A stretch of DNA of 64,000 bases, from assembly GCA_963703285.1 (NCBI GenBank), contig OY969807.1, positions 1,088,001-1,152,000 of the forward strand. The letters are read 5' to 3'. Within the stretch, counting starts at the first letter, position 1. Every line of letters begins with the position of its first letter. The notes below the pieces were generated by a model that worked only from the letters and a program-made list of their open reading frames with translations, made no database searches and was not told where the DNA came from. This DNA is from an uncultured Nitrososphaerota archaeon (GTDB lineage: Archaea; Thermoproteota; Nitrososphaeria; Nitrososphaerales; Gagatemarchaeaceae). Of this stretch, positions 16,080-52,044 are shown piece after piece. The position numbers and the translations under genes are program-made.

Positions 16080-16254
16080 CACATTGCCGGGTGAAATCAC
16101 TCGAGCAAGAATCCTCCTTTTGCTGCGGTGATAATCAGAAGGAGGAGTGAGGTGCACGGCATCTACGGCTACGCTACCGCCGCCTTTCGAACGCGCCCCC
16201 TCTGGTCGACAGGTCAGGAGGGATCGAGGCCTCGCGAACTGCTTCTCCGGATCG

Positions 16255-17757: not shown

Positions 17758-17955
17758 GAATCGTTGCCCCGACACGCGCCGCAGGTCGAGAGGTATAAAA
17801 TGTTCAGAAGAACGAGAGGTTACAACCCACGCATTAGGATACGAATCGAATGCTGGGTTACCCCTCTCTCGTCACGGATTTGACCCCGCAGCCTCTCATC
17901 ACCCTTGAATCCCTCAGAGCTCTCCGTCGCCCCTAGGCGCCCCTGCGCTGTCGTT

Positions 17956-18867: not shown

Positions 18868-19066
18868 GCTGCCCCCCGGAGATCCGACGATTACTTTGGT
18901 TAATAATCTTGCATGTTATAATAGGAATAACGGAATACGCAAGAGAGCGGCATGGCGCGCAGGCGTCACCAGATCTCTGCAGACAGACTCAGGAGTGCAA
19001 TCGCCGAGCGCCCCGGCTTGCGATGCACCATCATATTCATAAGTTGGAGCAGACGCCGGGAGAGTT

Positions 19067-19988: not shown

Positions 19989-20050
19989 GCGGAGTTACCG
20001 GGCCTCCCGATATAATTCGTTTTCTCCAAGTCGGGGGGCTACGCTGCGCC

Positions 20051-20383
20051 CTAGATGCCTTCGATCGACTTCTTCAGGGTGAGGGCGCCGTTCTTGATCT
20101 CGAGGTCGTAGATGTCATTCACGTCGAGCCTCAACCCGAACATGTCGTACTCGCTCTCGGTCAGGACCATCGTTATCTTGGGGAAGACCATCTCCCGTAT
20201 CTGGGGGACCAGGCCCATCGACTGCAGCTGGTTGACCATGCTCTGGACCATCCTCCCCTCGTCACCCCCGCCGTAGGCCTGGGCGCCTCTCTGCTTGACC
20301 TCGACGAGCTCAATCTGCTTGGCCGGCATACCTGTGAGAGGTTCGGTTACGCTGCTGATTCTGTTGACTCGGACCTGAACCAT
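20051..20383 (-). CDS. Arcadin-1 family protein
   Basis: 110 aa; I..V.EP.TG...K.IELVE and PKIT..LTE.EY...G.R.DVND pattern recalled from arcadin-1. Confidence 0.7.
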   Translation of the reverse strand: MVQVRVNRISSVTEPLTGMPAKQIELVEVKQRGAQAYGGGDEGRMVQSMVNQLQSMGLVPQIREMVFPKITMVLTESEYDMFGLRLDVNDIYDLEIKNGALTLKKSIEGI

Positions 20384-20424
20384 GGGGCGATGAGAACCCG
20401 CCGGTATTAAAACAGGTCGAAGCG

Positions 20425-20966
20425 TTACTCGGTATCGTCGTCCTGCTGCTGGGTTCCCTCGGGTTCCACGCCAAGAAGCTCCGCCGCTGTCTCGCCCTCG
20501 TCCGGGAGGGCGTCCTCCTGGCCGGATGCTCCCGGCTCGCTGACGCGCTGTTCCATCGGTTGCTGGATGCCCGCCGCCGCGTTGCTGATAATCTCCTCTA
20601 CCTCCTGCGGCGTGATTATCCTAGCCATCGAGAGGTTGACCAGGCTGTTCGAGCTAGCTTCCCCGTCAGCCTCCCTATCGGTCCCCTCGCCTGCCGCCAC
20701 TTCAGCTTGGTGTTCCCGCTCTTTGAGGTGTAGATGATGCCCAGTATGTCCTGTGCGTTGATGAAGGTGATGTCCCTTATCTTCTTCAGGTCGACCTTGT
20801 CCGCGGCCTCGATGTAGATCGAACCTGGATCCATCTCCTTCTCGGGGAAGACCTCAGGGTCCCTCAGATAAGACTCGGGTATGAAGCTCCGGCAGGTGCT
20901 GTTGATCAGGAACCTCCGGAAGCCCTCAAGATGGCACGTCAAGTCGATCTCCACCATCCGCGACAC
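20425..20966 (-). CDS. Conserved archaeal hypothetical protein, split by a 1-nt frameshift at 20661-20664
   Basis: Adding one G joins ..KWRQARGPIGRLTG to EASSNSLVNL..; acidic tail. Confidence 0.7.
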
Positions 20967-21151
20967 CTAGCAACTCGGGAGCGCTTTCCGCCCGTATTTG
21001 AACATAGGGTCGCCGGTCACTTCGCTTAGAAAGGATGATATGCCGGGGCGGCGGTCTTCACGGCAGGCGGGCTGTGACGACATAAGCCCTGGTGAGTTAT
21101 GATCCACGATCTTGAGTTCCGAGCCCGTCATCCAACGAAGGCCGGTTCCGC

Positions 21152-21712
21152 ATGAGGTTCCTCGTCAGGCTCGTTCCCCTGGAGCCCGACCGGGCCGCCT
21201 CCCTCGCCACGTTTAGAAGCATCGCGGCGAACCTGGGAGAGAGGGCGGCAAACCCGAAGTGGACGTCCCGCGGCACGCTCGAGGTCGATGTCTTCGCGCC
21301 CTCGCGCCAGGACTTCCAGCTGTTCTTGGCGGCGGTGGCCCCCCTCGCCAATATCGAGTTCGCGAAGGACCTCCAGGAGGCTCCCCCTTTCCTGACGAAG
21401 GAAGGCGCGGTCAAGGAGGCGGCGGCGCTCTTCAACCAGGAGAGGTTCTGGGAGGCCCACGAGGTTCTCGAGTCGAAGTGGAGGGTAGCGGGCGGCGAGG
21501 AGAAGAGGCTGCTCCAGGGGCTGATTCTCGTCTGCGCGGCGTTCGTGCACCACCAGAAGGACGAGGATGGTGTCGCCCTGGGGATAGCCAAGCGGTCCCT
21601 GCCTCTGCTCGCCTGGCCGGAAAGGGTCTACCTGGGCGTCGACGTGGAGCGGGTCAGGGACAGGATATCCACGATGGTCGAAGCCGGAAGGCTCTCGGTC
21701 TTCGAGCTCTAG
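21152..21712 (+). CDS. DUF309 domain protein
   Basis: LFNQERFWEAHEVLE..W..LQGLI..AA.VH. Confidence 0.9.
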   Translation: MRFLVRLVPLEPDRAASLATFRSIAANLGERAANPKWTSRGTLEVDVFAPSRQDFQLFLAAVAPLANIEFAKDLQEAPPFLTKEGAVKEAAALFNQERFWEAHEVLESKWRVAGGEEKRLLQGLILVCAAFVHHQKDEDGVALGIAKRSLPLLAWPERVYLGVDVERVRDRISTMVEAGRLSVFEL

Positions 21713-22086
21713 CCGAACACAGGTAGGTTCAGAGGGTGGTCCTCCTCCGGCACGAACGTCTTCTTCCTGGTCCCAAAGAAGGCGAGGGCGATGGTTGCTG
21801 CCGCCAGCAGGGCTGAGATTGCGAAGTCTGCGCCGGTGTCGGTTCCGAAGACGGCTATCCCGAGGATCTCGATCAGCGAGAAGGCGGCCGGCGCGTAGAG
21901 AGCATCGGGCGGCCCTATGAGGCTCGCCACCGAGGAAATCAAGATCAGGAGCCCGAGCGCCACCAGGGCCGCGTTGGGACCGCCCGGGGCGCCGAAGAAC
22001 TGCGTCCAGTACACCCCGGCGACGGCGGCCCACGCGCCGTTGACGACCCCGACCGCGACCGCGACCGCGACCGTGCTCAGCTTCAA
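21709..22086 (-). CDS. Hypothetical 4-TM membrane protein
   Basis: Hydrophobic ORF ending HPLNLPVFG; abuts the upstream gene. Confidence 0.7.
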   Translation of the reverse strand: MKLSTVAVAVAVGVVNGAWAAVAGVYWTQFFGAPGGPNAALVALGLLILISSVASLIGPPDALYAPAAFSLIEILGIAVFGTDTGADFAISALLAAATIALAFFGTRKKTFVPEEDHPLNLPVFG

Positions 22087-37331: not shown

Positions 37332-39005
37332 ATGGCTCAGATTGCAGACATCTCCCTAGAGGTAAGGAAGGAGGTCGCAAAGGGCAAGTTCATCCGGCAG
37401 ACCCAGTCGATATGCCCGGACTGCAACAGGATACTCCCGGCGATTGTCTTCGAGCGCGAAGGCAAGGTCTTCATGACCAAGACCTGCCCGCAGCACGGCG
37501 AGACCGAGGAGCTCTATTTCGGCTCCTACGAGATGTACGCCAAGTTCTCACGCTTCTGGAAGGACGGGAAGGGCACGCACGCGGCCAACGTCCCCATGGA
37601 CGTCTGCTCGTGCCCCGCGAACTGCGGGCTGTGCTCCAACCACCTCTCGCACACGGGTCTCTCGAACATCATCGTGACGAACCGCTGCGACCTAACCTGC
37701 TGGTACTGCTTCTTCTACGTCAAGAAGGGGCTCGAGGGCGCCTACGTCTACGAGCCGACGCTGCCGCAGATTCGCGAGATGGCCCGGACGCTCAAGGCCG
37801 AGAGGCCGGTCCCCGGCAACTCCGTCCAGATAACGGGCGGCGAGCCGACGATACGCGACGACCTGCCCGAGATAATCCAGATTATGAAGGAGGAGGGCGT
37901 AGACCACATCCAGCTCAACACCAACGGGATCAACCTGGCGCTCGACCCCGGGATGGCCCAGAGGCTGAAGGTCGCCGGAGTCTCGAACCTCTACATGTCC
38001 TTCGACGGCACCAGCCCCAAGACGAACCCGAAGAACCACTGGGAGGCGCCCTACGCCATAGAGGCCTGCAAGAGGGCGGGCATCGGCGTCGTCCTCGTCC
38101 CGACGGTCATCAAGTCCATCAACGACCACGAGCTCGGGTCCATCATCGAGTTCGGCCACAGGAACCTCGGCACCGTTCACGCCGTCAACTTCCAGCCCGT
38201 GTCGCTGACCGGGCGCATGACCGCCAAGGAGCGAGCAAAGTACCGCATCACGATACCCGACTGCATCAAGAGGATTGAGGAGCAGACGAACGGAGAGATT
38301 ACCTCGGAGGGCTGGTTCCCCGTCCCGTCGTGCTCGCCGCTGACCTCGTTCATCGAGGCGTTCACCAAGAAGGAGCAGTACGAGCTCTCGATACACTTCG
38401 CATGCGGCGCGGGGACCTACGTCTTCGAGGACGCGGAGACCAAGAAGCTGGTGCCGCTGACGAACTTCGTCGACATCCAGGGGCTCGTCGAGTACCTGGA
38501 GGAGAAGACGGAGGAGATTTACTCGGGGACGAACAGGTACGTGGTCGCCGCGAGGGTCCTCACCCAGATAAACAGGTTCGTCAACAGGGAGAAGCAGCCC
38601 AAGGGGATGTCGTTCGGGAAGATGATAACCAACGCGCTCATCAGGCACGACTACGCCGCCATAGGGGACTTCCACACAAAGTCGATGTTCCTCGGAATGA
38701 TGCATTTTCAGGATAAATACAATCAAGATGAGGAGAGACTTCAGCGCTGCGACATCCACTATCTGACTCCGGACCTGAGGATAATACCATTTTGCTCATT
38801 TAATGTCATACCTGAGTGGTACCGCGACCGCATCCAGCAGAAGTACGGCATGCCGATCGAGGCCTGGGAGAAGAAGGTCGGTCGCAAGCTCGAGGACGGA
38901 CTCTACCGTGGCACCCTTCGCAGAGGCGGCCACGTCGCAGGATGCGGATGCGCGCTCGGCGAGAACGGCGAAGAGATCCACATCCAACCGATAACCGGAA
39001 CCTAA
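37332..39005 (+). CDS. tes: Radical SAM tetraether (GDGT) lipid synthase
   Basis: N-terminal SICPDC..KTCPQHG; CP.NCGLC..H.SHT; TNRCDLTCWYCF; TGGEPT; NFQPVS..GR; MHFQD.YN.D.ER..RC.IHY..IIPFC.FN. Confidence 0.9.
   Translation: MAQIADISLEVRKEVAKGKFIRQTQSICPDCNRILPAIVFEREGKVFMTKTCPQHGETEELYFGSYEMYAKFSRFWKDGKGTHAANVPMDVCSCPANCGLCSNHLSHTGLSNIIVTNRCDLTCWYCFFYVKKGLEGAYVYEPTLPQIREMARTLKAERPVPGNSVQITGGEPTIRDDLPEIIQIMKEEGVDHIQLNTNGINLALDPGMAQRLKVAGVSNLYMSFDGTSPKTNPKNHWEAPYAIEACKRAGIGVVLVPTVIKSINDHELGSIIEFGHRNLGTVHAVNFQPVSLTGRMTAKERAKYRITIPDCIKRIEEQTNGEITSEGWFPVPSCSPLTSFIEAFTKKEQYELSIHFACGAGTYVFEDAETKKLVPLTNFVDIQGLVEYLEEKTEEIYSGTNRYVVAARVLTQINRFVNREKQPKGMSFGKMITNALIRHDYAAIGDFHTKSMFLGMMHFQDKYNQDEERLQRCDIHYLTPDLRIIPFCSFNVIPEWYRDRIQQKYGMPIEAWEKKVGRKLEDGLYRGTLRRGGHVAGCGCALGENGEEIHIQPITGT
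38910..39005 (+). repeat. tes 3'-end repeat, copy 1 (in-gene; left boundary of the island)
   Basis: GAGAACGGCGAAGAGATCCACATCCAACCGATAACCGGAACCTAA (NGEEIHIQPITGT*). Confidence 0.85.
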
Positions 39006-39129
39006 CGAAAGAGAGCCATAGGATCCGGGCTTTCCATTTCCTTTCCTGTGGCCCCTGTCTCCTTGCTTTGAAGCCGATTTAAGTAAAATTTATGACGGTT
39101 TGGGCCCATCTACTGCGGGTCAATGGCCG

Positions 39130-40446
39130 ATGGCCCGTCCAAAATTAGGTCAAAGCACGAGTGACAGGGTGTCAAGAACCGGCTCAATCGATTCGGTGGC
39201 TAGCAAGATACTCTCACAGTGCGAAGTCTTCTTCTTCGAGAGCCATGAACCGGGTAGAAATGCATCCAAGCTTCTTGATTCCACTACGGAGACGTTACTT
39301 CAATACGACGCCTTGAAGGACGAACTCTTACCTTATGACGTAAGCGAAACCCTTCGTAGTGCCCTTCTCACGATTCCCATTACTCATCGCCAAAACGCGA
39401 GAGCCCGCCTGAGAAGACTAATCTCAAGCAATTTGCTAGATGCTAAGGTTTTCGATATCTATTATGCCTTGAATCAAGTCTCGGGCTTTCCTAACCATTT
39501 TAAATTGGGCCATGGAGAGTTGCTCGCCTTTGATTCAGTCCCATCTTACGTCAGAAACAGAATGATACGGGCATGGAAAGGTGAATCGTTGGGCCATGGG
39601 CTGAACGCCAAGAGTTCTTCCGAATTCGTACAGTCGGGGAAGGAACATAACTGCCTGCACTTGACTGTCGCTCGTCGAGGGTTCGCTCGGGCCATAGCAG
39701 AGGCCAACAGAAAGGCCTACGAGTCGGTCAATCTCCTCCGGGTTGTTTACGGACAGGATGTCCCCTTGTTCACGCTAGTTCACGTAAGAAGGGGAAGTCA
39801 CTGGGACATAGGCGCTCTCTCCTACGGAGGCGGCGCCGTGAGGGATCGAAATATGTTCCCGGTAATCCAATACACGACCTGGCCATCTCTTCCTCATGGT
39901 ACGAGGAGAAAGCCATTGGAGACGCGGTATGGCCCTCACCATCTACTTGATATCCAGTACTCCGAGTCACTTGGTAGCATACTGTCCCGGTATAGAAGGC
40001 TGATGCTAAATGAGCATCCATCTGAGCTCGAAAGTAAGCTGAGAAACGCTCTTCTTCTCATTGGGTTCACGTGGGAGGTCGACCTTGATCAAGTCAAGTT
40101 CATCCTACTGATCACGGCTCTTGAAGCTCTGCTTCTGGAAGACTCAGGACAGGGGAACCTTCAACTGAGGCTTGCTGAACGGGTCGCGTTTCTTATTGGC
40201 GAATCTCCTGCAAGACGAGTGCAACTATATGACGAGATGAAGAGGTTCTATGGTCAACGCTCGCGATTTGTGCATCAAGGTGATTTTGAGGATAATGTGG
40301 ATGCTGATATCGCTGAACTCTTCGAAATAGCCAAAAGAGTTTGGGTCCGAGTTGAAGAACTCACAAAAGACGGCTTCGTTCAGCTTAGAAAGGACAAGCA
40401 GAAGAGATCTTTGGATGGTCTAGTTGAAAGGCTGAAATTCACATAA
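39130..40446 (+). CDS. ApeA-like HEPN domain protein
   Basis: L..ALEALL..LAERVAFL..Y..RSRFVHQG (RxxxxH). Confidence 0.8.
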   Translation: MARPKLGQSTSDRVSRTGSIDSVASKILSQCEVFFFESHEPGRNASKLLDSTTETLLQYDALKDELLPYDVSETLRSALLTIPITHRQNARARLRRLISSNLLDAKVFDIYYALNQVSGFPNHFKLGHGELLAFDSVPSYVRNRMIRAWKGESLGHGLNAKSSSEFVQSGKEHNCLHLTVARRGFARAIAEANRKAYESVNLLRVVYGQDVPLFTLVHVRRGSHWDIGALSYGGGAVRDRNMFPVIQYTTWPSLPHGTRRKPLETRYGPHHLLDIQYSESLGSILSRYRRLMLNEHPSELESKLRNALLLIGFTWEVDLDQVKFILLITALEALLLEDSGQGNLQLRLAERVAFLIGESPARRVQLYDEMKRFYGQRSRFVHQGDFEDNVDADIAELFEIAKRVWVRVEELTKDGFVQLRKDKQKRSLDGLVERLKFT

Positions 40447-40473
40447 TGCAGTTTTTGAGAAATCCATTCACAG

Positions 40474-40536
40474 TACGGCTTTGTTCTGGGCTAGAACGGC
40501 GAAGAGTTCCAAATCCAGCCGATGACAGGTACTTGA
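40474..40536 (+). repeat. tes 3'-end repeat, copy 2
   Basis: CTGGGCTAGAACGGCGAAGAGTTCCAAATCCAGCCGATGACAGGTACTTGA (NGEEFQIQPMTGT*). Confidence 0.8.
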
Positions 40537-40790
40537 ACTGATAGTAGAAAGCTCAACGCTTTCTATCCTCCACTTTCATCTTCAACCCACTGTTTACTTG
40601 TCGTTACGCTCTGATGCGGGATTATCCAGATGAATGTAGGCAATTCAATTCCGATGGTGTTAGGAGGCATGATAATTGGAACAAATCTGTATCATCCTAG
40701 GCTACAGAACGAGGTCTTCGGGTCATTGAAAGCTCGCGAAGGATATGAGATTCCCACTGTCAAGGTCGGCATTAGTACCGAAATTCAGCT

Positions 40791-42630
40791 TCATGACCAA
40801 ACAGCGCGGCTCACAGCCAAATCTCCAAGGATCTCTTCACGTTGCCTAATTGCCTCTTCACCAAATTCATTCAACTCGTCTCCCTCGAATGTCGCGTTAT
40901 TGACAGGAAGATTCATGGACAAATATCTTTCACGTTTTTGTTGGTATGGAAGAATTCCGAGTTCACTGTTCTCATCTTGTGAAAGAATTGTGAAATTTCC
41001 GAGCCGATCGACGAAATCCCCATGTTTCATATGCTTCGAAACGAGATACGCGTTCCAATCTGCATCAGGGTTTTGAGGAATCACATGTTCCAGGGTTATC
41101 TCCTTTCCCCACACTCTGTGAAGCGGGGTTGTTTCCATCTGGTCATTGATCATCGTTATGAGGTACTTGACCACTCGGCCCTTCCTATCCTTCATCTCGA
41201 CGAACGCTCTCTTGAGTTCTGCATCATCATGAGGCGTGACTTCCCTGATATGTCCGATGGCTGTTGGAAGGTCAAGACTCCCTGAACGGACCTCCAAGGC
41301 CCAAATACTGTACATCTCTTCCAATTCGTTCGGATTCCCTTCTAGTATTGTATACGCCTTGACACAGAGATTTCGATACGCCTCTAGCAACGATTCGATT
41401 CCACGCAAGTTCCCTGAGAATCGGATATACGCAGCTAGGAATAGAGGCAATGCTTGCCTAAAGCCCAAGTACTCGAGCTCACTAATGAGGTGAGAAATGC
41501 CACTGTGATTCGTCCACTCCGGAGAGGTAGGATCTCTTAGTGCAAAATAGGCTCTAGCTTCATTGGTCATCTTCTGCATGAATGTTTCGAAGGCGGGTGC
41601 AGTCTTTCCACCGATCTCGTTCTTAATCGCGGAACAACTTCTTCTTTCTAACAAACTCATAGTTTGAAAGCCAGAATTGACGCAGAAAATCATCAATATC
41701 ATCCCCTGCTATTTGAGAGAAGCCACTCCATATGTCCTCCATTCTAGGTTGGCCGAGGTCGTGCTCGAAAGTATCAAAGATGAAGTTCTTGAAGAGATCA
41801 CTAACCAAGAGTTTTGTCCCTCGTTGGTTGAGAGTCTCGAAGATCTCATACATGATTCCGATATCGGGAACCTTGTTGTCAAGAACATAGAATCCCGCAG
41901 AAAGCGATGTGTGAAGATCACGCAAATACGACTCGCTTACATCGTTCGATAAGGATGACAAGGCTGCGCGTAGCTGATCTTGATTGTTACCTGTGAGGCG
42001 TGTATTATTGATTCGTGCAATATCCTGGACTAATCTCAGATGATAGAACCGGTAGCAACCAACGATGGCTGAGTTGCTTTTTCCTTCCCCCTTCTCCTCA
42101 CGCAGGGTTGAGATCTTCGAAAGAGAATCCCCCTGGGCACCGCCAGCCGCGCGCAAAGTCAACACCCTGTCAAATAGCACCGAACTATCTTTTCCCAATT
42201 TAACACGAGAAGTGCTCAGACCTCCCGCAGTTTGAAGGAGTGAATCGTGAATTCTTCCTAGCACGTTAGCTCCTTCCGCCGAGATGTTGTAGATGGCTCG
42301 CTTGTAGTCAAGCAAGTCATAAATGACAATTTCGACAATAGCGAGGGTCGCCAATCGTTGCTGTCCGTCGAGGATTCGTAGAGTCCTAGCTTCCCCATTT
42401 GGCAAGAAAAACATCGGGCCGAGAAAATGGAAATTATCATGTGAATCGCGGTCCCCCCTCTGCCGTGCCCTTAACAGATCTTGCAGATCTTCCCAGAGGT
42501 CAAGCCAATTATCACTGTCCCAAGAATATCCTCGTTGATTGACGGGAACGACGAAACGATTATTGCGAAACAACTCCCCAATTTGGACTGGTTTCGAGGA
42601 AGGCAGTACATAGTTCTCAAAATCACTCAT
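40791..42630 (-). CDS. DUF262-DUF1524 (GmrSD/SspE-like) nuclease, frameshifted near 41630
   Basis: QRGYSW, DGQQR and IFETLN.RG..L..SD..KN (DUF262); LEHVIPQ..LGN..L...N (DUF1524 HNH). Confidence 0.88.
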
Positions 42631-42749
42631 AAATCGATATTTGTTGGTAATGATACATATGGCTTTTGCCCGTATCATACGTTCTTGCAAATTGACTTAG
42701 CTTTGGGTATTCCACCTCGAAGCCCAGACAGAATCTTATATAGTCAAAG

Positions 42750-43691
42750 GTGAAACAAGAGCCAGAGAAATTGAATGTTCCTGAGCTAGAAATTGCCGGT
42801 CTTCCTCAGGCAATTGAAAGAAGGTCTGCATTCCCGTTCATCAAATGGGCGGGAGGAAAGGGCCATCTTCTCAGCGAGATTATGCGCTATGTCCCGAGGG
42901 ATTTCTCAGGAGATTACTATGAACCATTCCTGGGGGGTGGGGCAGTGTTCTTCGCGTTGTACCGAACAGGCCACAGTTTCAAGGCTTATCTCTCGGACAC
43001 GAATGAAGAACTAATAAATTGCTATGAAATGGTCAAGAATAGACCAGCCGACCTGCTCGTGCTGCTGAAGATCTTGCAGCAGCAATTTCATGATGCGACA
43101 AACAAAGAAGTCTACTTCTACAATGTAAGAAGTCTGACTCCGACAAGCGGTCTCCAGGCCGCTGCAAGATTCATCTTCCTGAATAAGACATGCTATAACG
43201 GTCTATATCGCGTGAACAAGAAGGGAGTATTCAACGTTCCTTTTGGCGGGTATAGGAAACCCAATATCGTCAACGAAAGCAAGCTTTTCTCAGGAAGCAA
43301 GGCTCTGAACGAATCCAAGTCGAAGTTGAGCGTCTTGGACTACAAGAAATCGATTGATCGATGTCAATCCGGCGATTTGGTTTACCTCGATCCTCCATAT
43401 CACCCAACAAGCAAGACTGCGGCATTCACTGACTACACTACTCAAGGATTCACAGAGCTGGATCAAAGAAACCTTCGGGATTCGTTCGTTTCACTGGCAG
43501 AGCGTGGGTGCAAGGTTGTTCTCACCAATTCCGATACTGGATTAGTAAGAACCCTCTATGATGATTTCCGTAGGAAGCGACTCTTGGTTTCCCGTCCAAT
43601 AAGCTGCAAAGGTTCAGGGCGAAAGGGATTCCACGAGTTACTGGTTTCAAATGTTCCTAGAATAGACACCCAGATCAGTGATTTTGTATGA
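42750..43691 (+). CDS. dam: DNA adenine methyltransferase (Dam, D12 class)
   Basis: KWAGGK, EPFLGGG, RFIFLNKTCYNGLYRVN..G.FNVPFG and DPPY motifs. Confidence 0.95.
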   Translation: MKQEPEKLNVPELEIAGLPQAIERRSAFPFIKWAGGKGHLLSEIMRYVPRDFSGDYYEPFLGGGAVFFALYRTGHSFKAYLSDTNEELINCYEMVKNRPADLLVLLKILQQQFHDATNKEVYFYNVRSLTPTSGLQAAARFIFLNKTCYNGLYRVNKKGVFNVPFGGYRKPNIVNESKLFSGSKALNESKSKLSVLDYKKSIDRCQSGDLVYLDPPYHPTSKTAAFTDYTTQGFTELDQRNLRDSFVSLAERGCKVVLTNSDTGLVRTLYDDFRRKRLLVSRPISCKGSGRKGFHELLVSNVPRIDTQISDFV

Positions 43692-44227
43692 GTTCTTTGT
43701 TGATCATCCTGTCGCAACGCGAAAGAATCCCGAAAGTTCCGCAGGCGAACGAGATTAATCGAATCATTGAGTTAGTCGAGAAAGTGGGTGAAGGTGCTCA
43801 TGATGCCAAGACAATTGGTAAGAGAATGAGTTTTGATCCTCGACAGAGTTCTTACTACCGCGAGGCAGCCGAAATGCTGGGATTTCTTAATCAGCGGAAG
43901 CACTATTCCCTAACTGAGTTGGGAAAACAACTCATGGTGGCCGATCCAACAGCCCGAACACGCATTCTCTTCCTTTCCTTGCTGCGCTTTCCGGTAACCG
44001 GGATAATAGTTGAGAGTCTGGAGGCGGGGCTGCAGGAGTGGATTACTAAGGACGAAATCGAAGTGTATATGGCGAAAGTCAGCAAGCTAGATCCAGATAC
44101 TGTCAAGCGGCGGACGCAAACAATCCTCGCATGGCTGAAATGGCTGGCGAAGAACGGCGGAATCATCGAAGTTTCGAATGATGTAGTAAGGCTATCGTCT
44201 CAATATCGTTTGACGAACTTTGATTGA
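43688..44227 (+). CDS. Stand-alone winged-helix protein (DUF7226-like)
   Basis: PQAN, FDPRQSSYY..AA..LG, LT..G and T..RR..T...W..W motifs; ATGA overlap with dam. Confidence 0.7.
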   Translation: MSSLLIILSQRERIPKVPQANEINRIIELVEKVGEGAHDAKTIGKRMSFDPRQSSYYREAAEMLGFLNQRKHYSLTELGKQLMVADPTARTRILFLSLLRFPVTGIIVESLEAGLQEWITKDEIEVYMAKVSKLDPDTVKRRTQTILAWLKWLAKNGGIIEVSNDVVRLSSQYRLTNFD

Positions 44228-44308
44228 CAGAGAATCTCTGTCCGATTAATGGCATATCGACCAGTTCCCTAGAAGTATAAAGAGAGCCTAGAATTCGATT
44301 TCCGCGAA

Positions 44309-46447
44309 TTGGGTTTACGCGACCTGCCTCTAAAGGCTGCGTACGATTCTGACGAGGATGACGTCTTGAATGATTTCTACATCCCAGTTCTTTCAGAATC
44401 CATACGATACAGGAGACTTGCTGGATTCTTCTCTTCCACCTCGCTTGCTGTGGCCGCCCGAGGCATCTACAATTTTGTCTTAAGGGGAGGAGAGATGGAG
44501 CTCATCACGAGCGCGTATCTCAGCAAACAGGATGTAGAGGCAATTCGAGCCGGATTGAAAGAGGCCGATCAAGCCATTTCCAAGTCCGCCCTCGATGAAT
44601 TGGGCAGTATAACTGAGGAGTCGGTGAAGAATAACTTGAAGACACTTGCGTGGCTCGTCGCGAGTAGAAAGCTAAGAATCAAAATCGCCATTCCAATGGA
44701 CGATGGAGGGTGCCCCTTGGAAAGGGATGCAATTGAAACTAAAGGAATATTCCATCAAAAAGTCGGATTGCTCGTGGACGAAAGCGGAGACTCAATTTCC
44801 TTTAGTGGGTCGATCAATGAAACGGCGTACGCTTGGACGAGTAATATCGAGGAATTCAAGGTCTTCAGAAGTTGGGACCAAACTCAAAACTCTTACCTCA
44901 CTAGCGACCGCGCCAAGTTGGACAAGTACTGGACGGGGAGTCCGAAGAACACCCGGGTTATCGACCTACCTACGGCAATTAGGGAACGGCTGCTTGCCAT
45001 GGCTCCGACAAGAATGGAGGATCTCGTCCCTGATGGCAAGGGTCCTGCGCATTCAGGCAGCTTCGTATTGCGCGACTATCAGATAGAAGCAATTGAGAAG
45101 TGGCGCGAGAATGGCTTTAGGGGGATCTTGTCCATGGCAACCGGGACTGGCAAGACACTCACTGCGCTAAGCGCCATCAAGGAACACGTACCCACGACCG
45201 CCCTGAACATCATCGCGGTTCCCACGATCCTGTTGGCAAATCAGTGGAAAGAAGCAATACGAAGAGTGTTTCCGGACTCACTAACACTTGAGTGCGATTC
45301 CTCTACAGCAAATTGGGAAAGCAAACTGAGGGTAATCGCTGATCACCTGAACACTGCTTCTCCAAGCTCCAAGAGATTCTTCGCCATCATTATTCAACGA
45401 ACTGCGGGAACTGAACGCTTCGTCAACATGATTGCGGCACTACCTTCTGAGAAATTATGTCTGGTAGGTGATGAAGTACATCATATGGGCGCCCGCGTTT
45501 CAAGCAACATCATGACGAAGGACTTTTCCTTCAGGCTTGGGCTCAGTGCAACGCCGGAGCGATTTTGGGATGAGGAGGGTCAAAGCCGCATCGTTCAGTT
45601 CTTCGGCCGCATTGTCTTCGACTATCCGATAAGTCGAGCTTTGAAGGATAAAGTTCTGTGCGAGTACTTGTATTATGTTAAGCCGGCGATATTGGAGGAT
45701 ACCGAACTAATCCAGTATTCAGACGTAACAACGGCCATCTCTGGGAAAATCACACGACTACAACGCCTGTACCCCTCATTGAGGAGTCTTGCGTTCCCTA
45801 GCCTTCTTGGGAAGCTGGGTGCACTGGATCCTGATGAGTTTTCGTCGCTGCAAGCGCTTCTTCAAACTCGGGTTAACATACTCAAGCGCGCACACAACAA
45901 GATAGAAGCGACCCGTGAGATAGTCCAAGCTGGCGGATTGAAACGATGTCTTATCTACTGCAATGATATAGAACACGTTAAGGAGGTCGTTGAGATGCTT
46001 GGGACTTTAAATATCGGTGCCCTCGAATACGATTCTTCGATGAAGGACGAGGACAAGGAATCGAATCTCTCCTCGTTTGCTGCAGAATCTGGTGGTTTTC
46101 TTGTTGCAGTTAGGTGCCTCGACGAGGGAGCCGATATTCCTTCATGTGATAGTGCCATAATCGTATCAAGTTCGAAGAATTCAAGGGAATTCATTCAGCG
46201 CAGAGGAAGAATGCTCAGGCGCAGCGAAAACAAAGATTTTGCAAGAATCCACGACATACTCATTTTGCCGATGGACCCAGATTCATCCTCTCGGAGTCTG
46301 TCTGAACCGGAGTACCGAATCATTGATTCAGAACTGGATAGAGCGCGCCTATTCGCTGAGTCCGCTAAGAATAGCTCCGAAGTGTTGCTCGACATTGCCC
46401 GAATTGCGAGGGCGCTGTCGGCGAAGGTGAAGCGGGGAGAAGAGTGA
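44309..46447 (+). CDS. pbeA: PLD nuclease plus SF2 helicase, PbeA-like
   Basis: FYIP.L..Y.R.AGFFSS; FHQK.G...D..F.GS.NET; MATGTGKT; DEVH; GLSATP; LDEG.D.P; QRRGR.LR. Confidence 0.85.
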   Translation: MGLRDLPLKAAYDSDEDDVLNDFYIPVLSESIRYRRLAGFFSSTSLAVAARGIYNFVLRGGEMELITSAYLSKQDVEAIRAGLKEADQAISKSALDELGSITEESVKNNLKTLAWLVASRKLRIKIAIPMDDGGCPLERDAIETKGIFHQKVGLLVDESGDSISFSGSINETAYAWTSNIEEFKVFRSWDQTQNSYLTSDRAKLDKYWTGSPKNTRVIDLPTAIRERLLAMAPTRMEDLVPDGKGPAHSGSFVLRDYQIEAIEKWRENGFRGILSMATGTGKTLTALSAIKEHVPTTALNIIAVPTILLANQWKEAIRRVFPDSLTLECDSSTANWESKLRVIADHLNTASPSSKRFFAIIIQRTAGTERFVNMIAALPSEKLCLVGDEVHHMGARVSSNIMTKDFSFRLGLSATPERFWDEEGQSRIVQFFGRIVFDYPISRALKDKVLCEYLYYVKPAILEDTELIQYSDVTTAISGKITRLQRLYPSLRSLAFPSLLGKLGALDPDEFSSLQALLQTRVNILKRAHNKIEATREIVQAGGLKRCLIYCNDIEHVKEVVEMLGTLNIGALEYDSSMKDEDKESNLSSFAAESGGFLVAVRCLDEGADIPSCDSAIIVSSSKNSREFIQRRGRMLRRSENKDFARIHDILILPMDPDSSSRSLSEPEYRIIDSELDRARLFAESAKNSSEVLLDIARIARALSAKVKRGEE

Positions 46448-46451
46448 AACC

Positions 46452-46631
46452 TTGGCAAAGATTGATCCCATTCTCGACCAATTGATCCAAGAGGCGTCAA
46501 AGAAGTTTGACGTTCCTGAGTCGCTGCTCTCTTCGATAATCCTAGAAGAGAAAATCCAGCGATACAGAAGGGGAGGAGACAAGAAGATCGTGATAGAAAA
46601 GCTAGCTAAGATTCTCGAAGAAGGAGAGTAG
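46452..46631 (+). CDS. pbeB: Small helical protein, PbeB-like (59 aa, absent from the ORF track)
   Basis: TTG start; MAKIDPILDQLIQEASKKFDVPESLLSSIILEEKIQRYRRGG..; lies between the helicase and ATPase genes. Confidence 0.7.
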   Translation: MAKIDPILDQLIQEASKKFDVPESLLSSIILEEKIQRYRRGGDKKIVIEKLAKILEEGE

Positions 46632-46634
46632 AAG

Positions 46635-48632
46635 ATGAAGCTCGTAGAACTCTCGATGGAGAATTTTCGCTCATACAAGGAGAAAAAACCAGTTAAGTTC
46701 CCTACAACAGATGAGAAACCGCTAGTCACCTTTGTGGGAAACAACGGAGCTGGCAAGACAACAATATTCCTCGCTATAATATGGGCGCTCTATGGTGAAA
46801 GAGCCATACGCGCGTACGCGGAGAACCGCCCGACGGACACCCAGGCTCCTCGTACAAACTTCGACCTGCTCAACAGTGACGTGGTAGAAACAAGCCCAAA
46901 GCCTTTCATGCGCGTCACTCTGGTTTTTGAGCACGGTTCAAAGAAGTATATTCTGTGGAGAAGGATCACGTCAAACCGTTCGAATCCCCAGTCAAATCGG
47001 GATCTTGCTGGAGAGGAGATCGAGCTGAAGGAAATCGGAAAGCCGTCACATGAGAACTTCCCGCAAGGAGTGATCGACGACATTCTTCCCTTCGAAGCAT
47101 CACAATTCTTCCTCTTTGATGGGGAAGAAGTCCGACGATACAGCGGGGGAAAGGCCAAGGAGACACAAGAGGCAATTGAACTCGTTCTTGGCATCCCAGA
47201 AATTCGTGAGGCGAGAGACGACATGACGAAAATCCAGAGACGCTTGTTGGAGCGACTTCGAGAAGAGCCCAACGTCTCAGAGAACATGAGAAATATCAGT
47301 AATGGTCTTGAACTCGCCATAAGAAACGAACGGACGTTTGGAGACACTCTGGAGGCCAAGAGAAAGGAGTTCGCCAACGTTGAAACGGAACTTAGGCAAG
47401 CGCAACTCCGGCGCGAGGAACTGAAGGAGATAGCTGACGAGAACGCTCAATTACAAAGGATTATCGCAGAAAAGAAGGCAACAGACGAATCAATAATCGA
47501 AAACGAGGCACGGCGTAACGAGTTGGTCGATAGGTTGCCTTACTTCTTGATAATACCACAGGTTAGGGAGACTCTAGCTAGATTCAAGAAAATTTCGGGA
47601 ACAGATGATCTTACTTCGAGAATCAGGAATCTTGCCGTTAGGACTGAGACGATAGATGAGCTACTTAACTCCACGACAGGCACATGTCTGTGCGGCTCGA
47701 CACTGGATGATTCACACAGGCGTCATCTTCTGTTGGCACGAAAATCGCTGGAAGAGGAGTCTAAGGAGCTGGGTCTCCGCGCTTCAAAGAAAACCGTTCC
47801 GCCCACGGAGGACATTCAGTACGTGTTAGGTCGCCTCGAAGGCGTGAATGTCGACTTCAAGCAATTGGACCGGACTATCAATGAGCTTAAGGTGAGTTTG
47901 ATCGAGCTCGATGACCAGAGACTTGCTCTTGAAAAGAAGATCAAGGGAAGCGACGTTCGGGAAGCTGCCCAGGTCCAGACACTGATCGAACAGCTCAGCG
48001 TTCGGAAGGGAAAGCTGGAGGCCGAGATTGAAAGTGGTCGAGTGTATTATAACCAAGCTCTGACGGCAAAGGAAAGACTAACAGGCCTTCTAAGAAAAAC
48101 TCAGGGAGAATTGGGAACTATGTCAACGGTTTCTGTTCGGCAACAGACAGCCTCGAAGCTAGTAGAAGCGTTAAGTTGGATAATTGAGGAGTTATCGTCA
48201 AAGAAAAAGAGATTGATAATTGACAACGCTTCGAAATTCTTCGGTACCGTCTCAGAAGATGCTGGATGGAGTGGGATTCAAATGGATGACGACTACTCGA
48301 TCTGGTTGCTTGATGCCAAGGGAAGACGCACAATTCCTGCTGAAGGCTGGAAAGAACTAGTCGCTCTATCGCTAATATACGGTCTGAACAAGGCGGCCAA
48401 CTACGAAGCTCCTGTTGTGATGGATTTCGTGCTTGGGCGTCTTGACTCCTCGCGCCAGATCGGTGTTGTAGACAATCTCGCGGATTTCGCAAAACAGATC
48501 GTTATACTGTTCCTAGACTCTGAAATCCAAACCGAGAGGGTGAAAGAAAGATTGTCTTCTCTTTCCGCCGCCCAGTATGAAATAGAGAGAGATTCAAGCG
48601 GTGGGAGTATTGTCCAGGAGCTAGGAAGATGA
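46635..48632 (+). CDS. pbeC: SMC/Rad50-like ABC ATPase, PbeC/DndD-like
   Basis: ENFRSY, GNNGAGKTT, FFLFDGE, coiled coils, CLCG hook and PVVMD..LGRLD. Confidence 0.85.
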   Translation: MKLVELSMENFRSYKEKKPVKFPTTDEKPLVTFVGNNGAGKTTIFLAIIWALYGERAIRAYAENRPTDTQAPRTNFDLLNSDVVETSPKPFMRVTLVFEHGSKKYILWRRITSNRSNPQSNRDLAGEEIELKEIGKPSHENFPQGVIDDILPFEASQFFLFDGEEVRRYSGGKAKETQEAIELVLGIPEIREARDDMTKIQRRLLERLREEPNVSENMRNISNGLELAIRNERTFGDTLEAKRKEFANVETELRQAQLRREELKEIADENAQLQRIIAEKKATDESIIENEARRNELVDRLPYFLIIPQVRETLARFKKISGTDDLTSRIRNLAVRTETIDELLNSTTGTCLCGSTLDDSHRRHLLLARKSLEEESKELGLRASKKTVPPTEDIQYVLGRLEGVNVDFKQLDRTINELKVSLIELDDQRLALEKKIKGSDVREAAQVQTLIEQLSVRKGKLEAEIESGRVYYNQALTAKERLTGLLRKTQGELGTMSTVSVRQQTASKLVEALSWIIEELSSKKKRLIIDNASKFFGTVSEDAGWSGIQMDDDYSIWLLDAKGRRTIPAEGWKELVALSLIYGLNKAANYEAPVVMDFVLGRLDSSRQIGVVDNLADFAKQIVILFLDSEIQTERVKERLSSLSAAQYEIERDSSGGSIVQELGR

Positions 48633-49039
48633 GCAACGAAGGAATTGGGTTTGCTTATCTTGATCCCGGACAGAGGTTCGCCACGTCGAAAGAAGGGAAG
48701 AGGATTCTTGAAGAGTTAGTCAAAGGCAATGAGAGTTTCCATCCCTTCGGGACACAGGTGGGGATATTCATGCTAGCTCTTGCCGTGGGGATAATTACGC
48801 GGGATATTTCTGACGATAAGCTAACTGAGACAATATTCGTTCTTTCGACTTACCGAAATAATGATGAGTTCGGCGTCTATCCACTAGTTGTAAAATCAAT
48901 GTATCCGGAGTTAGACGAAAAGGAGACCGGAGAAATGATAGAAAAGTTTGCTGATGCAGGACTGAAGACATTATACAAGGAGTTCACAGCCAGCGGCAAG
49001 ATTGATTTTGAGAAGTGGATTGCCCTTTCAAGGAAATAG
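48629..49039 (+). CDS. pbeD: PbeD-like small protein
   Basis: IFMLALAVG..EKFA.AGL..L; ATGA overlap with the ATPase gene. Confidence 0.65.
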   Translation: MSNEGIGFAYLDPGQRFATSKEGKRILEELVKGNESFHPFGTQVGIFMLALAVGIITRDISDDKLTETIFVLSTYRNNDEFGVYPLVVKSMYPELDEKETGEMIEKFADAGLKTLYKEFTASGKIDFEKWIALSRK

Positions 49040-49092
49040 GCGATCTGGGCTAACTCTTCCCTGAGAACTTAGGAGATAAGAGAGAGGGAATG

Positions 49093-49582
49093 TCATTCTT
49101 TAATTCTTCCTATGTATTTCTTGACAGTCTCGCCGCTTATCTTGTAGCCGGTAGCTCTCGCGATTTCGAGACATGCTTGGCTGTACTCAGAGTTTGCCAG
49201 TAGGATGGATCGAATTTGGTTCAGGAACGATTCTGGAAGTGCTTTTCTTTCTGGAAATCTCTTTGCTGTTCCCATGGCCACCAAATCTTCGTAGTAGTTA
49301 CTCCGAATCCTAGAACTGAAGATGGGAAGTGATAGTCCGTCTTCGGTTCCAATGTCAATGTGAGTGATTGATGGTTGGTTGAAGACCATAGAGCGTATGT
49401 TGAGACTTGCGAACAGATCAACGAGCAGGCGTTCATTCGGTGAAGAGACTATCTTCACGTGATCGGCACCTGCGTCGACCCAGCCATCTGATTCGGCCAG
49501 CGCTTGCAGGAAGTGGATTCTGACGCTCGGTGGCGATTTCAGGAGCCATTTCGCTCTCAACGGATCGTATGTCGTCCTCTCT
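49093..49582 (-). pseudogene. 5'-truncated LAGLIDADG-like endonuclease remnant
   Basis: ERTTYDP..FLQALAESDGWV motif; lacks an N-terminus. Confidence 0.6.
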
Positions 49583-49871
49583 ATCTGTGTCTTCGGAGGG
49601 AAACGTCTAAGAGCGGAGAAGTTGAAAAGTAGTCTGCACTTGGTAAATTATCTGTCGAGCTTGGTTGCGGCTTCGAGCAATGCCAGAGGTTCCCTAAGGA
49701 CCACGTTTCCGAAGGAATTGGTGGATTTGTTTGGTCTGGCTGAGGGGGACAAGATAGAATGGGAATTCGATTCGAGGTCAGGTAAAGCTTGAGGCCATTG
49801 TCCGCAAGTCTGAATGAGGTTCCACATTTGATTCTGCCGACGTTCACAACAATCGAGAATCTACCAAGGAA

Positions 49872-50435
49872 TTATCTTCTCCAATACTCAGGAAAGTCCT
49901 TCCCGGAGCCCGTTTGGTTGCCAGCATATCGGAACGCATTGTCGAAGTCCTTCTTATCCCATATCAATCGCTTATAAAACGAAACTGCGAATAATGCTGC
50001 GGTCACCCAAAAGATTTCGGTCTTCGGCGCGAGATAGTAATCAGCTCCTTTTTGCCTCATAGCATCGGCCATGTCCTTGTAGGAATTCAAACAAGCGCTA
50101 ACAAAAACTGTTCCTGCTTTGATGTCGCCATCCATTTGAGCAATATCCTTTGCCGTGACCCATGAACTACCAACTTTGATACCAGTATTCTTTCCGCGCC
50201 TACCTGAACTTCTCTTTCCGCTATCACCATGCGCCGAAAGATGAATGATAGTGGGCCAATTCGCAGTCAAGGCGGCGAAGAGCGCGTTCTTGCTACGAAC
50301 TTCTCCTGGGTAATAATCAACGGATCTGGGGAATCTCAACTTGAGCATTCTGAAGAATTCACTTAGTAACACCGTTTCGTTCGGCTGATTCTGCGCAATG
50401 CAATTTACGAGAAGGATTCGATATTTTCGGGGCAT
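49872..50435 (-). CDS. Small CHAT/caspase-fold protein
   Basis: IIHLSAHG and FVSAC His-Cys dyad; A..F...FY..L. Confidence 0.7.
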   Translation of the reverse strand: MPRKYRILLVNCIAQNQPNETVLLSEFFRMLKLRFPRSVDYYPGEVRSKNALFAALTANWPTIIHLSAHGDSGKRSSGRRGKNTGIKVGSSWVTAKDIAQMDGDIKAGTVFVSACLNSYKDMADAMRQKGADYYLAPKTEIFWVTAALFAVSFYKRLIWDKKDFDNAFRYAGNQTGSGKDFPEYWRR

Positions 50436-50567
50436 TAATGAATCGGTGATGAAACTATCAATCTTCTACTTAATTCCTCCCAAGTCAGTTACCGAGGCTT
50501 CGTTCTCTCTTTTTTGGAGTCTGTTGTGTGCCCTAACGCGGCGCATGGGGTGTAGGCAACAATCACC

Positions 50568-50727
50568 ATGGCCACCGCTCAACGCTTCCTCGAGAGATCG
50601 CCCCTATCATTGTCGTTCCTCGCCCAAATTAAGCTGGTCCTGTCTAGCTGCAAGAACTACGATCGAGCCTGCTTGGATATCGCGACGAACACAGGTTATA
50701 AGATCAGCAATAAGACGGTAAAGAAAT
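50568..50727 (+). pseudogene. Second, inverted C-terminal fragment of the LAGLIDADG-like family
   Basis: MATAQRFLER..SFL.QI..ACL.IA..TGYKIS..TVKK aligns with the C-terminus of 49093-49582. Confidence 0.65.
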
Positions 50728-50754
50728 GCTCAATCGCATTACGCTGTCCGGAGA

Positions 50755-51303
50755 TCAGTCGAACTTGAGCAGGTCTTTCATTGCAATGTCTCCTGATTTC
50801 AACCTCTGGAATAGCAATTCTGAAGTATTCAGGTCGTCTCGATTGTGCATCACGATCTTGTCGTATTCCTTCGTTTCGTAGAAATGAGGCATATCCTTAC
50901 CATTCAATTCTGGAAACTCCCTCTTGATTCCCAGCCTCGCGAGCCAAAAAGACTGACTCTGATAGCTGTCTCCGAGGAACTGATAGAGGTCAAACCACTT
51001 CTTGTCATGAATCTTTACCCATGAATCCGGGGTTGACTTGCCAAGAATGTCGAGACGCTTGAGAAGGAATGGAACGTCGAACTTCAGATTATTGAATCCC
51101 AGTATGGTCTCTTCAAACTTGTCAATCCCTTCTATCTCCCTGAATACCTCTAGGATCATCTCTGCTTCACTCCTTGCCTCCCAAACCTTCCAGTGTAGAA
51201 TCTTCCCATGGCGTTTCATTCCGATGAGAGAAACGATGCTCCTGTGAGGATCTAACCCTTGGCCGGCCGTCTCGATGTCAAAACAAACGACCATGTTCAA
51301 CAT
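50755..51303 (-). CDS. RNase H-like DEDD exonuclease (YprB/RNase_H_2 type)
   Basis: FDIET, GFN..FD.PFL and HN.DD motifs. Confidence 0.85.
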   Translation of the reverse strand: MLNMVVCFDIETAGQGLDPHRSIVSLIGMKRHGKILHWKVWEARSEAEMILEVFREIEGIDKFEETILGFNNLKFDVPFLLKRLDILGKSTPDSWVKIHDKKWFDLYQFLGDSYQSQSFWLARLGIKREFPELNGKDMPHFYETKEYDKIVMHNRDDLNTSELLFQRLKSGDIAMKDLLKFD

Positions 51304-51412
51304 TTGCCGACCTTGCAGAATAAAAAAAGCGTCACTCTTGTTCACTGCGTCGGAATCGAGCCGACTCGATGTCATAGGGTTAATTAGTCCCGGCTTCCCA
51401 ATCCACTTCAGC

Positions 51413-51712
51413 ATGAGCTTCTCTGAGGCCAAAGTCGAGCAGGTTTGGCAGAAGGCTACACAGGTTCCCGATCCTCAAAATCCAAGGTGGGCAAAGGATG
51501 AATGCGGAGCTTGGATCTACAGGGGCAACTACGGTAGGCGTGACCTAGTATATGGCTGGGAGGTTCATCATATCCTACCGGCCTCAAGAGGGGGGTCCGA
51601 TGACTTGTCGAATCTAATCCCTCTCCAGTGCGATAACAATATTGCGACTGGCGATGGTCCTCTTCGATGTGTGATGAAGGCAAACGGTAACAAGAATGTT
51701 CGCGTTGGATAA
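51413..51712 (+). CDS. Small HNH endonuclease
   Basis: VW.K..D.CGA.I..GWEVHHI.P...GG.D..SNL.PL...NN. Confidence 0.85.
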   Translation: MSFSEAKVEQVWQKATQVPDPQNPRWAKDECGAWIYRGNYGRRDLVYGWEVHHILPASRGGSDDLSNLIPLQCDNNIATGDGPLRCVMKANGNKNVRVG

Positions 51713-51783
51713 ATGCCAATCCGTCGGTCAGGAAACTTCTCAGACAAGTTAACAGGATTCGCGATTAAGCGCTCGCTTGCTCT

Positions 51784-52044
51784 TCACTTTTCCATATCTT
51801 TTAACTTGGACGAGACCGATTTTCCCCGTTCCGAAGCCACAAAGATCTTCCCCAGCCTCGCCTTCGGAGTGACAAGTTCGATCAGCCCCTTCGATTGGAG
51901 CTCGCGGAGCGCTCGGCTGATATTCGGGAGGCTCATGTGAAGCTCTCTCGCAAGGATTGTGGGGGTCTTCGCCGAGGCCAACTTCAGCAGGACGGCGGCG
52001 CGAGTCTTGCTGCGAACCACATAGCTCACGTCATCCCAGGACAT
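51784..52044 (-). CDS. Winged-helix (ArsR/MarR-like) regulator
   Basis: RS..R..TPT.LA...SL.NISRAL.EL...GLI. Confidence 0.85.
   Translation of the reverse strand: MSWDDVSYVVRSKTRAAVLLKLASAKTPTILARELHMSLPNISRALRELQSKGLIELVTPKARLGKIFVASERGKSVSSKLKDMEK

Follow-up and report, generated by a model that had tools for sequence, protein, structure and literature searches.

How could a PbeABCD effector recognize the DNA of its own host in a genome without genes for phosphorothioation (PT)? The question is raised by six adjoining genes at positions 42750-49039 of a 64,000-nucleotide (nt) stretch from an uncultured Nitrososphaerota archaeon (assembly GCA_963703285.1, contig OY969807.1, positions 1,088,001 to 1,152,000 of the forward strand), which is called here, at its full length, the window. 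So far PbeABCD has been tested only together with PT, and this locus is a compact natural case, with six genes in one genome and no PT genes. The answer that we favor, and to which we give an even chance, is that the locus encodes a methylation-marked, PT-independent PbeABCD joined to a cassette of a Dam methylase and a stand-alone DUF7226 protein, a probable winged helix-turn-helix (wHTH) that would work with the Dam mark. The coupling of these parts is what we infer from homology and from recurrence in other loci. The six genes are the following.

42750..43691, + strand: dam, D12-class N6-adenine DNA methyltransferase (Pfam MethyltransfD12 PF02086, 1.7e-57)
43688..44227, + strand: stand-alone DUF7226 protein, probable winged helix, 179 amino acids (PF23871, 3.1e-20)
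44309..46447, + strand: pbeA, HKD (phospholipase-D-type) nuclease and superfamily 2 (SF2) helicase (PADLOC PDLC02707, 1.4e-202)
46452..46631, + strand: pbeB, small protein of 59 amino acids (position, counterpart in locus L001, weak Sp-DndD match)
46635..48632, + strand: pbeC, DndD-like ABC ATPase that has a CxC motif in its coiled coil (PADLOC PDLC02725, 3.6e-63)
48629..49039, + strand: pbeD, DndE-like small protein of 136 amino acids (counterpart in L001, profile-profile match to DndE)

An earlier reading made from the letters alone (the sequence-only reading) had described six co-oriented, tightly coupled genes at these positions, and the open reading frame (ORF) list and the sequence confirmed it: all six ORFs were intact, ATGA overlaps were present at the dam/DUF7226 and pbeC/pbeD junctions, and the remaining gaps were of 81, 4, and 3 nt. 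Matches to hidden Markov models (HMMs) as strong as these across ORFs of 700 residues are beyond chance. By homology, the order of the last four genes is that of PbeABCD, as had been proposed; pbeA and pbeC were recognized by their PADLOC models, and pbeB and pbeD by position and by their counterparts in the closest relative, a Nitrososphaerales metagenome-assembled genome (L001). The identities with L001 were 55% for PbeA and 56% for each of PbeB, PbeC, and PbeD, while no other PbeA exceeded 41%.

PbeA carried the Pfam domains ResIII and Helicase_C. Its HKD residues (H149, K151, D157, G167, S168, and N170) were invariant in 31 relatives, and so were the helicase residues, namely G281, K282, and T283 of the Walker A motif and D388, E389, and H391 of the DEVH box; it is the only intact nuclease of the six-gene cluster. 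PbeB matched Sp-DndD (PF20306) weakly and below the cut-off (0.0024), and its counterpart at the same position in L001 was found by tblastn (56% identity, 2e-16), which fits a small, fast-evolving protein between pbeA and pbeC. PbeC matched the DndD model TIGR03185 below its cut-off (2.9e-41) and had the sequence CLC at residue 351 of 665, in the middle of the coiled coil, which by its position in the sequence would lie at the apex. Such a mid-coil C.C was present in 39 of 69 PbeC/DndD-like ORFs of at least 550 amino acids and absent from two canonical DndD paralogues (L007, L009). The motif therefore puts PbeC among the CxC ABC ATPases of the literature; of the earlier label, "SMC-like ATPase", the ATPase stands and the likeness to SMC has to be dropped. 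PbeD (136 amino acids) had neither a Pfam family nor a Pfam DndE match, and TIGR04062 (dnd_assoc_4) matched it weakly (0.0036). When 33 proteins found at the PbeD position were compared with 6 DndE proteins by hhalign, the probability was 84.5% (E 6.9e-6, 108 columns), and by this profile comparison PbeD is probably a distant relative of DndE, as Rakesh et al. (2024, PMC10853773) state.

The genome is a single contig of 2,252,123 bp, 95.98% complete, and whole-genome searches agreed with the claim that the module comes without PT genes. There were no matches to DndC or to the PAPS_reduct family (the latter search was positive in 14 of 14 control genomes), and the sole DndD-like match was PbeC itself, with no second DndD. 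Pfam DndE was not found in the genome either, a weak negative, since that model matched no control genome. A dndCDE locus elsewhere, on which Pbe could depend, was in this way looked for and not found.

The self mark would instead come from Dam. The protein has the D12 fold with the DPPY and S-adenosylmethionine motifs, scored 271.9 bits against the NCBIfam model TIGR00571 "dam" (cut-off 114.85), and aligned over its full length with DpnM (2dpm, 3.9e-62) and with E. coli Dam (9e-41); DPPY and the motif I glycine were invariant in an alignment of 28 sequences. A profile search of the genome returned it as the sole D12 methylase. Its hairpin YNGLYRVN...FNVPFG aligned with the DNA-contacting hairpin of E. 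coli Dam. Since it resembles DpnM and the E. coli enzyme along its whole length, the methylase of the window is probably GATC-specific. The window held 276 GATC sites in its 64,000 bases where about 250 are expected at equal base use, so that no avoidance was evident, a count that is uninformative on function.

The protein encoded between dam and pbeA was assigned to DUF7226 and also matched AAA_assoc_C (8e-7 in Pfam); a winged helix is its probable fold, a label taken from weak Pfam matches, and no solved structure matched DUF7226 by sequence. It had been said to resemble the C-terminal domain of Dam-associated restriction enzymes, and both the domain architectures and the genome loci agree with this, the enzymes being putative. 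The protein aligned with positions 276-421, the C-terminal third, of the 426-position PADLOC REase_II model PDLC03513 (2.5e-7). With the DUF7226 profile, 2,257 representative proteins were found in the full library at E<=0.001; among the best 150 of them, about 59 had 404-449 amino acids with DUF7226 at the C-terminus and about 48 had at most 200, some of these being possibly fragments. Pfam listed the architectures DUF6996-DUF6997-DUF7226, DUF7226-DndB, DUF7226-GmrSD_N, and D12 methylase-DUF6996-DUF6997-DUF7226 (723-749 amino acids), the last one also in a version that carries Schlafen AlbA_2. In the 58 genome loci retrieved via DUF7226, the long fused form resembling a restriction enzyme (417-758 amino acids) was present in 45, a D12 methylase ORF in 42, mostly ending where the DUF7226 gene starts, and only an N6_N4 methylase in 7 more; none of the 58 contained PbeA and PbeC together, and eight of the short DUF7226 ORFs of this genome scan were split enzymes, the nuclease part of which lies immediately upstream. 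Taking together this census and the architectures, the normal home of DUF7226 is, by homology, the C-terminus of putative Dam-linked type II restriction enzymes of about 430 amino acids. A Protein Atlas search returned only DUF7226 clusters, and a locus search with the wHTH as sole query found no loci.

In the window the nuclease part is missing: the N-terminal domain of the restriction enzymes had no match anywhere in the window at E<=1, and no DUF6997 was found in the genome (the Pfam model matched no control genome; a local model did detect it in 9 other loci). We considered that the gene could be the remnant of a fresh truncation and rejected this, given that the window holds no nuclease remnant, that the gene belongs to a conserved stand-alone clade, and that it is under constraint, with nonsynonymous divergence (pN) of 0.26-0.42 well below a saturated synonymous divergence (pS) of 0.77-0.86 in 14 pairs, all with intact ORFs. 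The motif RQSSYYREAAExLG was invariant in 12 close relatives. Judged by these comparisons, the Dam-wHTH cassette is not decaying. Identity with MTaX1 was also discarded: the genome had no match to PF20296, a model that matched no control genome either, and hhalign of the DUF7226 profile with an MTaX1-HNH protein gave a probability of 0.65%. MTaX1, unrelated to DUF7226, behaves alike, as in genome G412, where it is fused to an HNH nuclease beside a methylase.

In order to see which genes accompany Pbe elsewhere, PbeA was scanned in one genome per species, which gave 80 loci (tallies of 81 include the window). Many loci lie on short contigs, the relatives are not independent samples, and the companion genes were counted with local HMMs of limited sensitivity, whose scope excludes other methylase families and which missed the N6_N4 match of L025, if contig G416:C69 is that of L025. 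The methylase counts come from these local HMMs rather than from whole-genome matches, given that contig numbers do not always equal accession suffixes (e.g., L076). The companions in the 81 loci were a B12-binding radical-SAM gene in 39, a methylase of any kind in 23 (D12 in 11, N6_N4 in 14, C5 in 3), and DndC in 7; the other 17 had none of these, and 12 of them lie on contigs shorter than 15 kb. DndC never occurred together with a methylase or a radical-SAM gene, and within the 80 loci it was found in 0 of 22 with a methylase versus 7 of the 58 others. Whole genomes were searched for 50 of the 80, with DndC above the cut-off in 9 and absent above the cut-off in 41; Pbe without PT is thus the rule in this clade. 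The linkage of dam and pbe across genomes, which the sequence-only reading had left to be checked, was found: D12 methylases were present in 10 of the 80 loci, and none of these 10 genomes had DndC anywhere. In four of the loci (L050, L058, L077, and L079) dam lay directly 5' of pbeA, at most 18 nt apart or overlapping. PbeABCD of this clade usually stands beside some modification gene, and this is rarely DndC.

The closest relative repeats the whole set. In L001, dam and a stand-alone DUF7226 gene of 170 amino acids, with overlapping ORFs, lie directly 3' of pbeD, so that the same six genes are present in a different order. The tight combination is repeated there with another sub-lineage of the cassette and in a different place, a recurrence that speaks for selection acting on it. 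It was also possible to see in L001 (9033-11701) two N6_N4 methylase genes next to the dam-wHTH pair and a stand-alone protein, encoded on the minus strand, that matches only the nuclease part of DUF7226 enzymes (E 6.7e-26), nuclease and wHTH being separate genes; a split nuclease in L016 resembles this arrangement.

Copies of DUF7226 without nuclease were present in 5 of the 81 Pbe loci (the window, L001, L012, L070, and L076). Pfam DUF7226 was detected in 4 of the 50 PbeA-encoding genomes, those of the last four loci, always without nuclease and with 162-267 amino acids; by coordinates it lies less than 10 kb from pbeA in L001, L076, and L070, and in L012 too if the contig number equals the accession suffix. 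Among 401 genomes sampled from the phylum of the window, only the genome of the window itself had DUF7226 above the cut-off. A wider profile added 15 Pbe loci, all bacterial, in which the gene just 5' of pbeA encodes a C-terminal DUF7226-like domain, either in a protein of about 235 amino acids or at the C-terminus of one of about 630-780. The two domains are remote homologues (hhalign probability 96.6%, E 5.8e-10, 90 columns). In all 15 the partner was a radical-SAM enzyme with CxxxCxxC, fused in 7 and encoded by an adjacent gene in 8, where the DUF7226-like gene lies between the radical-SAM gene and pbeA. All 20 DUF7226-type domains at the 81 Pbe loci are therefore accompanied by a putative DNA-modifying enzyme, be it a methylase or a radical-SAM enzyme, and none occurred in the 7 DndC-linked loci.

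Considering these associations, the following mechanism could be proposed. Dam would mark the host DNA as self with N6-methyladenine, probably at GATC. PbeC and PbeD would load onto DNA and scan it, PbeA, with its SF2 translocase and HKD nuclease, would act on unmarked DNA, and PbeB would be a small regulator. The DUF7226 protein would descend from the DNA-binding domain at the C-terminus of Dam-linked type II restriction enzymes and would be primarily part of the Dam cassette, probably recognizing the Dam site or sensing whether it is methylated, and informing a nuclease encoded elsewhere, here PbeA.

Several observations weigh against this mechanism, and some of them speak for a second explanation, in which two independent systems lie side by side: an autonomous Dam-wHTH pair, that is, a domesticated or degenerate type II restriction-modification (RM) system with an orphan methylase and its DNA-binding partner, and a PbeABCD without self mark, for example, a suicide nuclease triggered by infection and restrained by PbeB. 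We hold this explanation, the main rival, to be possible and on the doubtful side. In a metagenome scan, the closest relatives of the wHTH of the window were not those of Pbe loci; they were those of L159-L169 (43-46% identity, versus only 32% with L001), where stand-alone genes for 173-209 amino acids without nuclease domain follow directly after a D12 Dam, and neither PbeA nor PbeC was found next to these pairs, whose contigs measure 4-12 kb. A quick IQ-TREE tree placed the wHTH of the window with the Dam-coupled stand-alone copies (6 rows, SH-aLRT 99), L001 apart on a long branch, and L076 and L012 in another clade. The cassette can therefore exist without Pbe. Besides, the four dam-pbeA loci named above have no DUF7226 at all, which means that the wHTH is not needed for pairing Dam with Pbe. 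Both findings weaken the proposal of the sequence-only reading that the wHTH may be a specificity adaptor for Pbe. Two metagenome loci (L170 and L191) have pbeA-pbeC followed by Dam and a full, nuclease-bearing DUF7226 enzyme, which looks like either an intermediate state or two systems that simply cluster in a defence island. The 81-nt spacer before pbeA contains a TATA-like GTATAAA (44274-44282), about 30 nt 5' of the TTG start of pbeA, as read from the sequence, so that pbe may have its own promoter. The 17 Pbe loci without a recognized modification gene, the suicide model that Rakesh et al. (2024, PMC10853773) offer, and the other defence-like genes of the island (a split GmrSD, CHAT, and HNH) point the same way. 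Set against the two-system explanation are the repetition of the gene set in L001 with a different order and cassette sub-lineage, the mutual exclusion of DndC and methylases at Pbe loci, the four loci with dam directly 5' of pbeA, and the short contigs (<15 kb) of 12 of the 17 bare loci.

The DUF7226 protein could also be a transcriptional controller, like the C proteins of RM systems, which would time the expression of dam versus pbeABCD and would have no part in target recognition. Its size, its probable helix-turn-helix, its place between the methylase and nuclease genes, its translational coupling to dam, and a putative recognition helix that is nearly invariant across D12- or N6_N4-linked relatives would suit such a role; nevertheless, DUF7226 is C-terminally fused to restriction-enzyme-like proteins in 45 of the 58 genome loci, and its other fusions, with D12 methylase plus nuclease, DndB, GmrSD_N, and, for the remote homologue, radical-SAM, are typical of a targeting domain and not of a repressor, which makes the controller unlikely. 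As for an inactive PbeABCD left over from a PT that is no longer made, it would agree with the lack of PT genes and with the split of the neighboring GmrSD gene, a sign of some decay in the island. It would be a very improbable state for four full-length pbe ORFs whose HKD, helicase, Walker A, and CxC motifs are all intact, in a clade where DndC above the cut-off is missing from 41 of 50 related genomes. The methylation-marked PbeABCD with its Dam-wHTH cassette is the reading that we favor, at an even chance.

The neighborhoods of the cassettes suggest a wider idea. The Dam of the window had 50-55% identity with those of the cassettes without Pbe versus 42% with that of L001; since this repeats the pattern of the wHTH, Dam and wHTH appear to evolve as one cassette. 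Three types of neighborhood were distinguished, the contigs that share other flanking genes differing in their neighbors: two unknown proteins in L159-161, a convergent set of ParB_N-like protein, Mrr_cat nuclease, and SNF2 helicase in L162/163 (L162:4570-7979), and an N6_N4 methylase with a transporter in L165-167. Judged by such comparisons, Dam and wHTH form an independent cassette that is found beside differing helicase-nuclease effectors. It is then conceivable, and we put it forward tentatively as something rather unlikely, that Dam and the stand-alone DUF7226 protein form a portable "writer-reader" cassette that licenses an adjoining ATP-dependent helicase-nuclease: the wHTH, freed from its nuclease, would sense whether the Dam site is methylated and would license PbeABCD in the window and in L001, and Mrr_cat with SNF2 in L162 and L163. 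If this is true, effectors blind to modification would be turned into RM-like systems, and in many Pbe loci of bacteria the remote homologue of DUF7226 would do likewise for a radical-SAM enzyme that modifies DNA.

The B12-binding radical-SAM gene is the commonest companion of pbeACD in this clade, ahead of methylases or DndC, in loci that range from L004 to L078 (e.g., L014:14661-15995, L025:14699-15955, L052:8119-9999, and L066:8116-9291), and it could serve Pbe as a partner for DNA modification that is as yet undescribed; the link was not found in the parts of Rakesh et al. (2024, PMC10853773) available to us. In L012, a Methanobrevibacter contig, two tandem pbeA-pbeC-pbeD sets (9884-21983) have a radical-SAM gene between them, and the second set is directly followed by a DUF7226 protein of 267 amino acids. 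In L010 (7496-9897) and L034 the order was radical SAM, a DndB-like gene (Pfam DndB, 2.1e-13), and pbeA; this order and the DUF7226-DndB fusions (P0138, P0146) tie DndB-type ParB domains to the same network. A "PbeA-like" neighbor in L120 was discarded, as it was an HTH_17 plus helicase protein without HKD.

The six genes lie inside a low-GC island of about 13 kb (46-50% versus about 60%, roughly 39000-52000), and the cluster was horizontally acquired; no tRNA, as a signal of integration, was found between 30 and 60 kb of the window. A second TATA-like element, TTATATA (42736-42742), was read immediately 5' of the GTG start of dam. The island also contains a GmrSD gene split by a frameshift and genes of the CHAT-domain, RNase H/PolB-exonuclease-like, and HNH types, as listed here together with an ORF of the left edge.

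39100-40446: ORF of 448 amino acids without family match
40791-42690, - strand: GmrSD-type gene, DUF262 N-terminal and HNH C-terminal domains (PADLOC HEC-06/Orf5)
49872-50435, - strand: CHAT-domain gene
50755-51432, - strand: RNase H/PolB-exonuclease-like gene
51275-51712, + strand: HNH gene

The GmrSD-type gene is divergent from dam, with a spacer of 59 nt, and a frameshift near 41623-41702 splits it into two overlapping ORFs. Intact GmrSD-like genes directly adjoin pbeA in L009 and L015, and DUF7226-GmrSD_N fusions are known too (P0161). A direct repeat of 47 nt with 83% identity (38955-39001 and 40486-40532), which copies the 3' end of the radical-SAM gene at 37332-39005, flanks the 448-residue ORF, and the bracketed ORF appears to have been inserted where the island begins on the left. 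On the right side, the three genes may be further defence genes; the RNase H/PolB-like and HNH ORFs, which are on opposite strands, share 158 nt, so that perhaps not both of them are real genes.

The pairing of Pbe with methylation, which the sequence-only reading inferred, is not a new idea. In the main text of Xiong et al. (2019, PMC6459918) only 233 of 553 PbeAC had dndCD within 10 kb, and methylases, whose types that text does not give, lay near 155 of 320 solitary pbeAC; they considered as a first possibility that Pbe activity depends on PT, solitary copies being inactive, and also put forward methylation as a possible partner of Pbe. Rakesh et al. (2024, PMC10853773), in the parts available, equated PbeABCD with the CxC ABC ATPase-DndE systems, described versions with cytosine C5 or N4 methylases and the MTaX1 domain, and argued for DNA cleavage by the HKD nuclease, with the suicide model as the alternative. 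A methylation-paired Pbe is thus already a published hypothesis. A literature search on PbeABCD, which did not extend to the supplements of these two papers, found no test of it. A full-text search found no paper that mentions DUF7226, and those supplements may list such neighbors; as far as searched, the findings on DUF7226 are not in print. DUF7226, which putative type II restriction enzymes share with Dam cassettes and with Pbe loci, could account for the reading of a modification mark in these systems. In this locus the mark can be supplied or withheld by means of plasmids grown in dam+ or dam- E. coli, which makes the use of methylation by Pbe directly testable.

By comparison with known systems, the locus has the four effector genes of the haloarchaeal DndCDEA-PbeABCD (Xiong et al. 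2019, PMC6459918), identically arranged (an HKD-SF2 helicase, a small protein, a DndD-like ATPase, and a small DndE-like protein); the genome of the window, however, has no DndCDEA, the Pfam DndE search being weak, and Dam and the DUF7226 protein stand in its place. The CxC ABC ATPase-DndE systems with MTaX1 (Rakesh et al. 2024, PMC10853773) agree with the locus in the core, in a methylase that takes the place of PT, and in one more small noncatalytic domain, found in RM systems too, but in the window the methylase is an N6-adenine D12 enzyme and not a C5 or N4 one, and the extra domain is DUF7226 and not MTaX1. With the putative Dam-linked type II RM systems (PDLC03513) the locus has in common a Dam-family methylase followed immediately by a DUF7226 gene, Dam and wHTH both being clear homologues, with 37-41% identity in the wHTH, whereas the N-terminal nuclease part of about 265 amino acids is missing from the gene, the window, and the genome. 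The type I and type III RM systems, with which the available parts of Rakesh et al. (2024, PMC10853773) draw the comparison, resemble the locus in combining a self-marking methylase with an ATP-requiring SF2 helicase-nuclease; the locus differs from them in having no HsdS or Mod-type specificity subunit, in its HKD nuclease, and in that it also has an ABC ATPase paired with a DndE-like protein.

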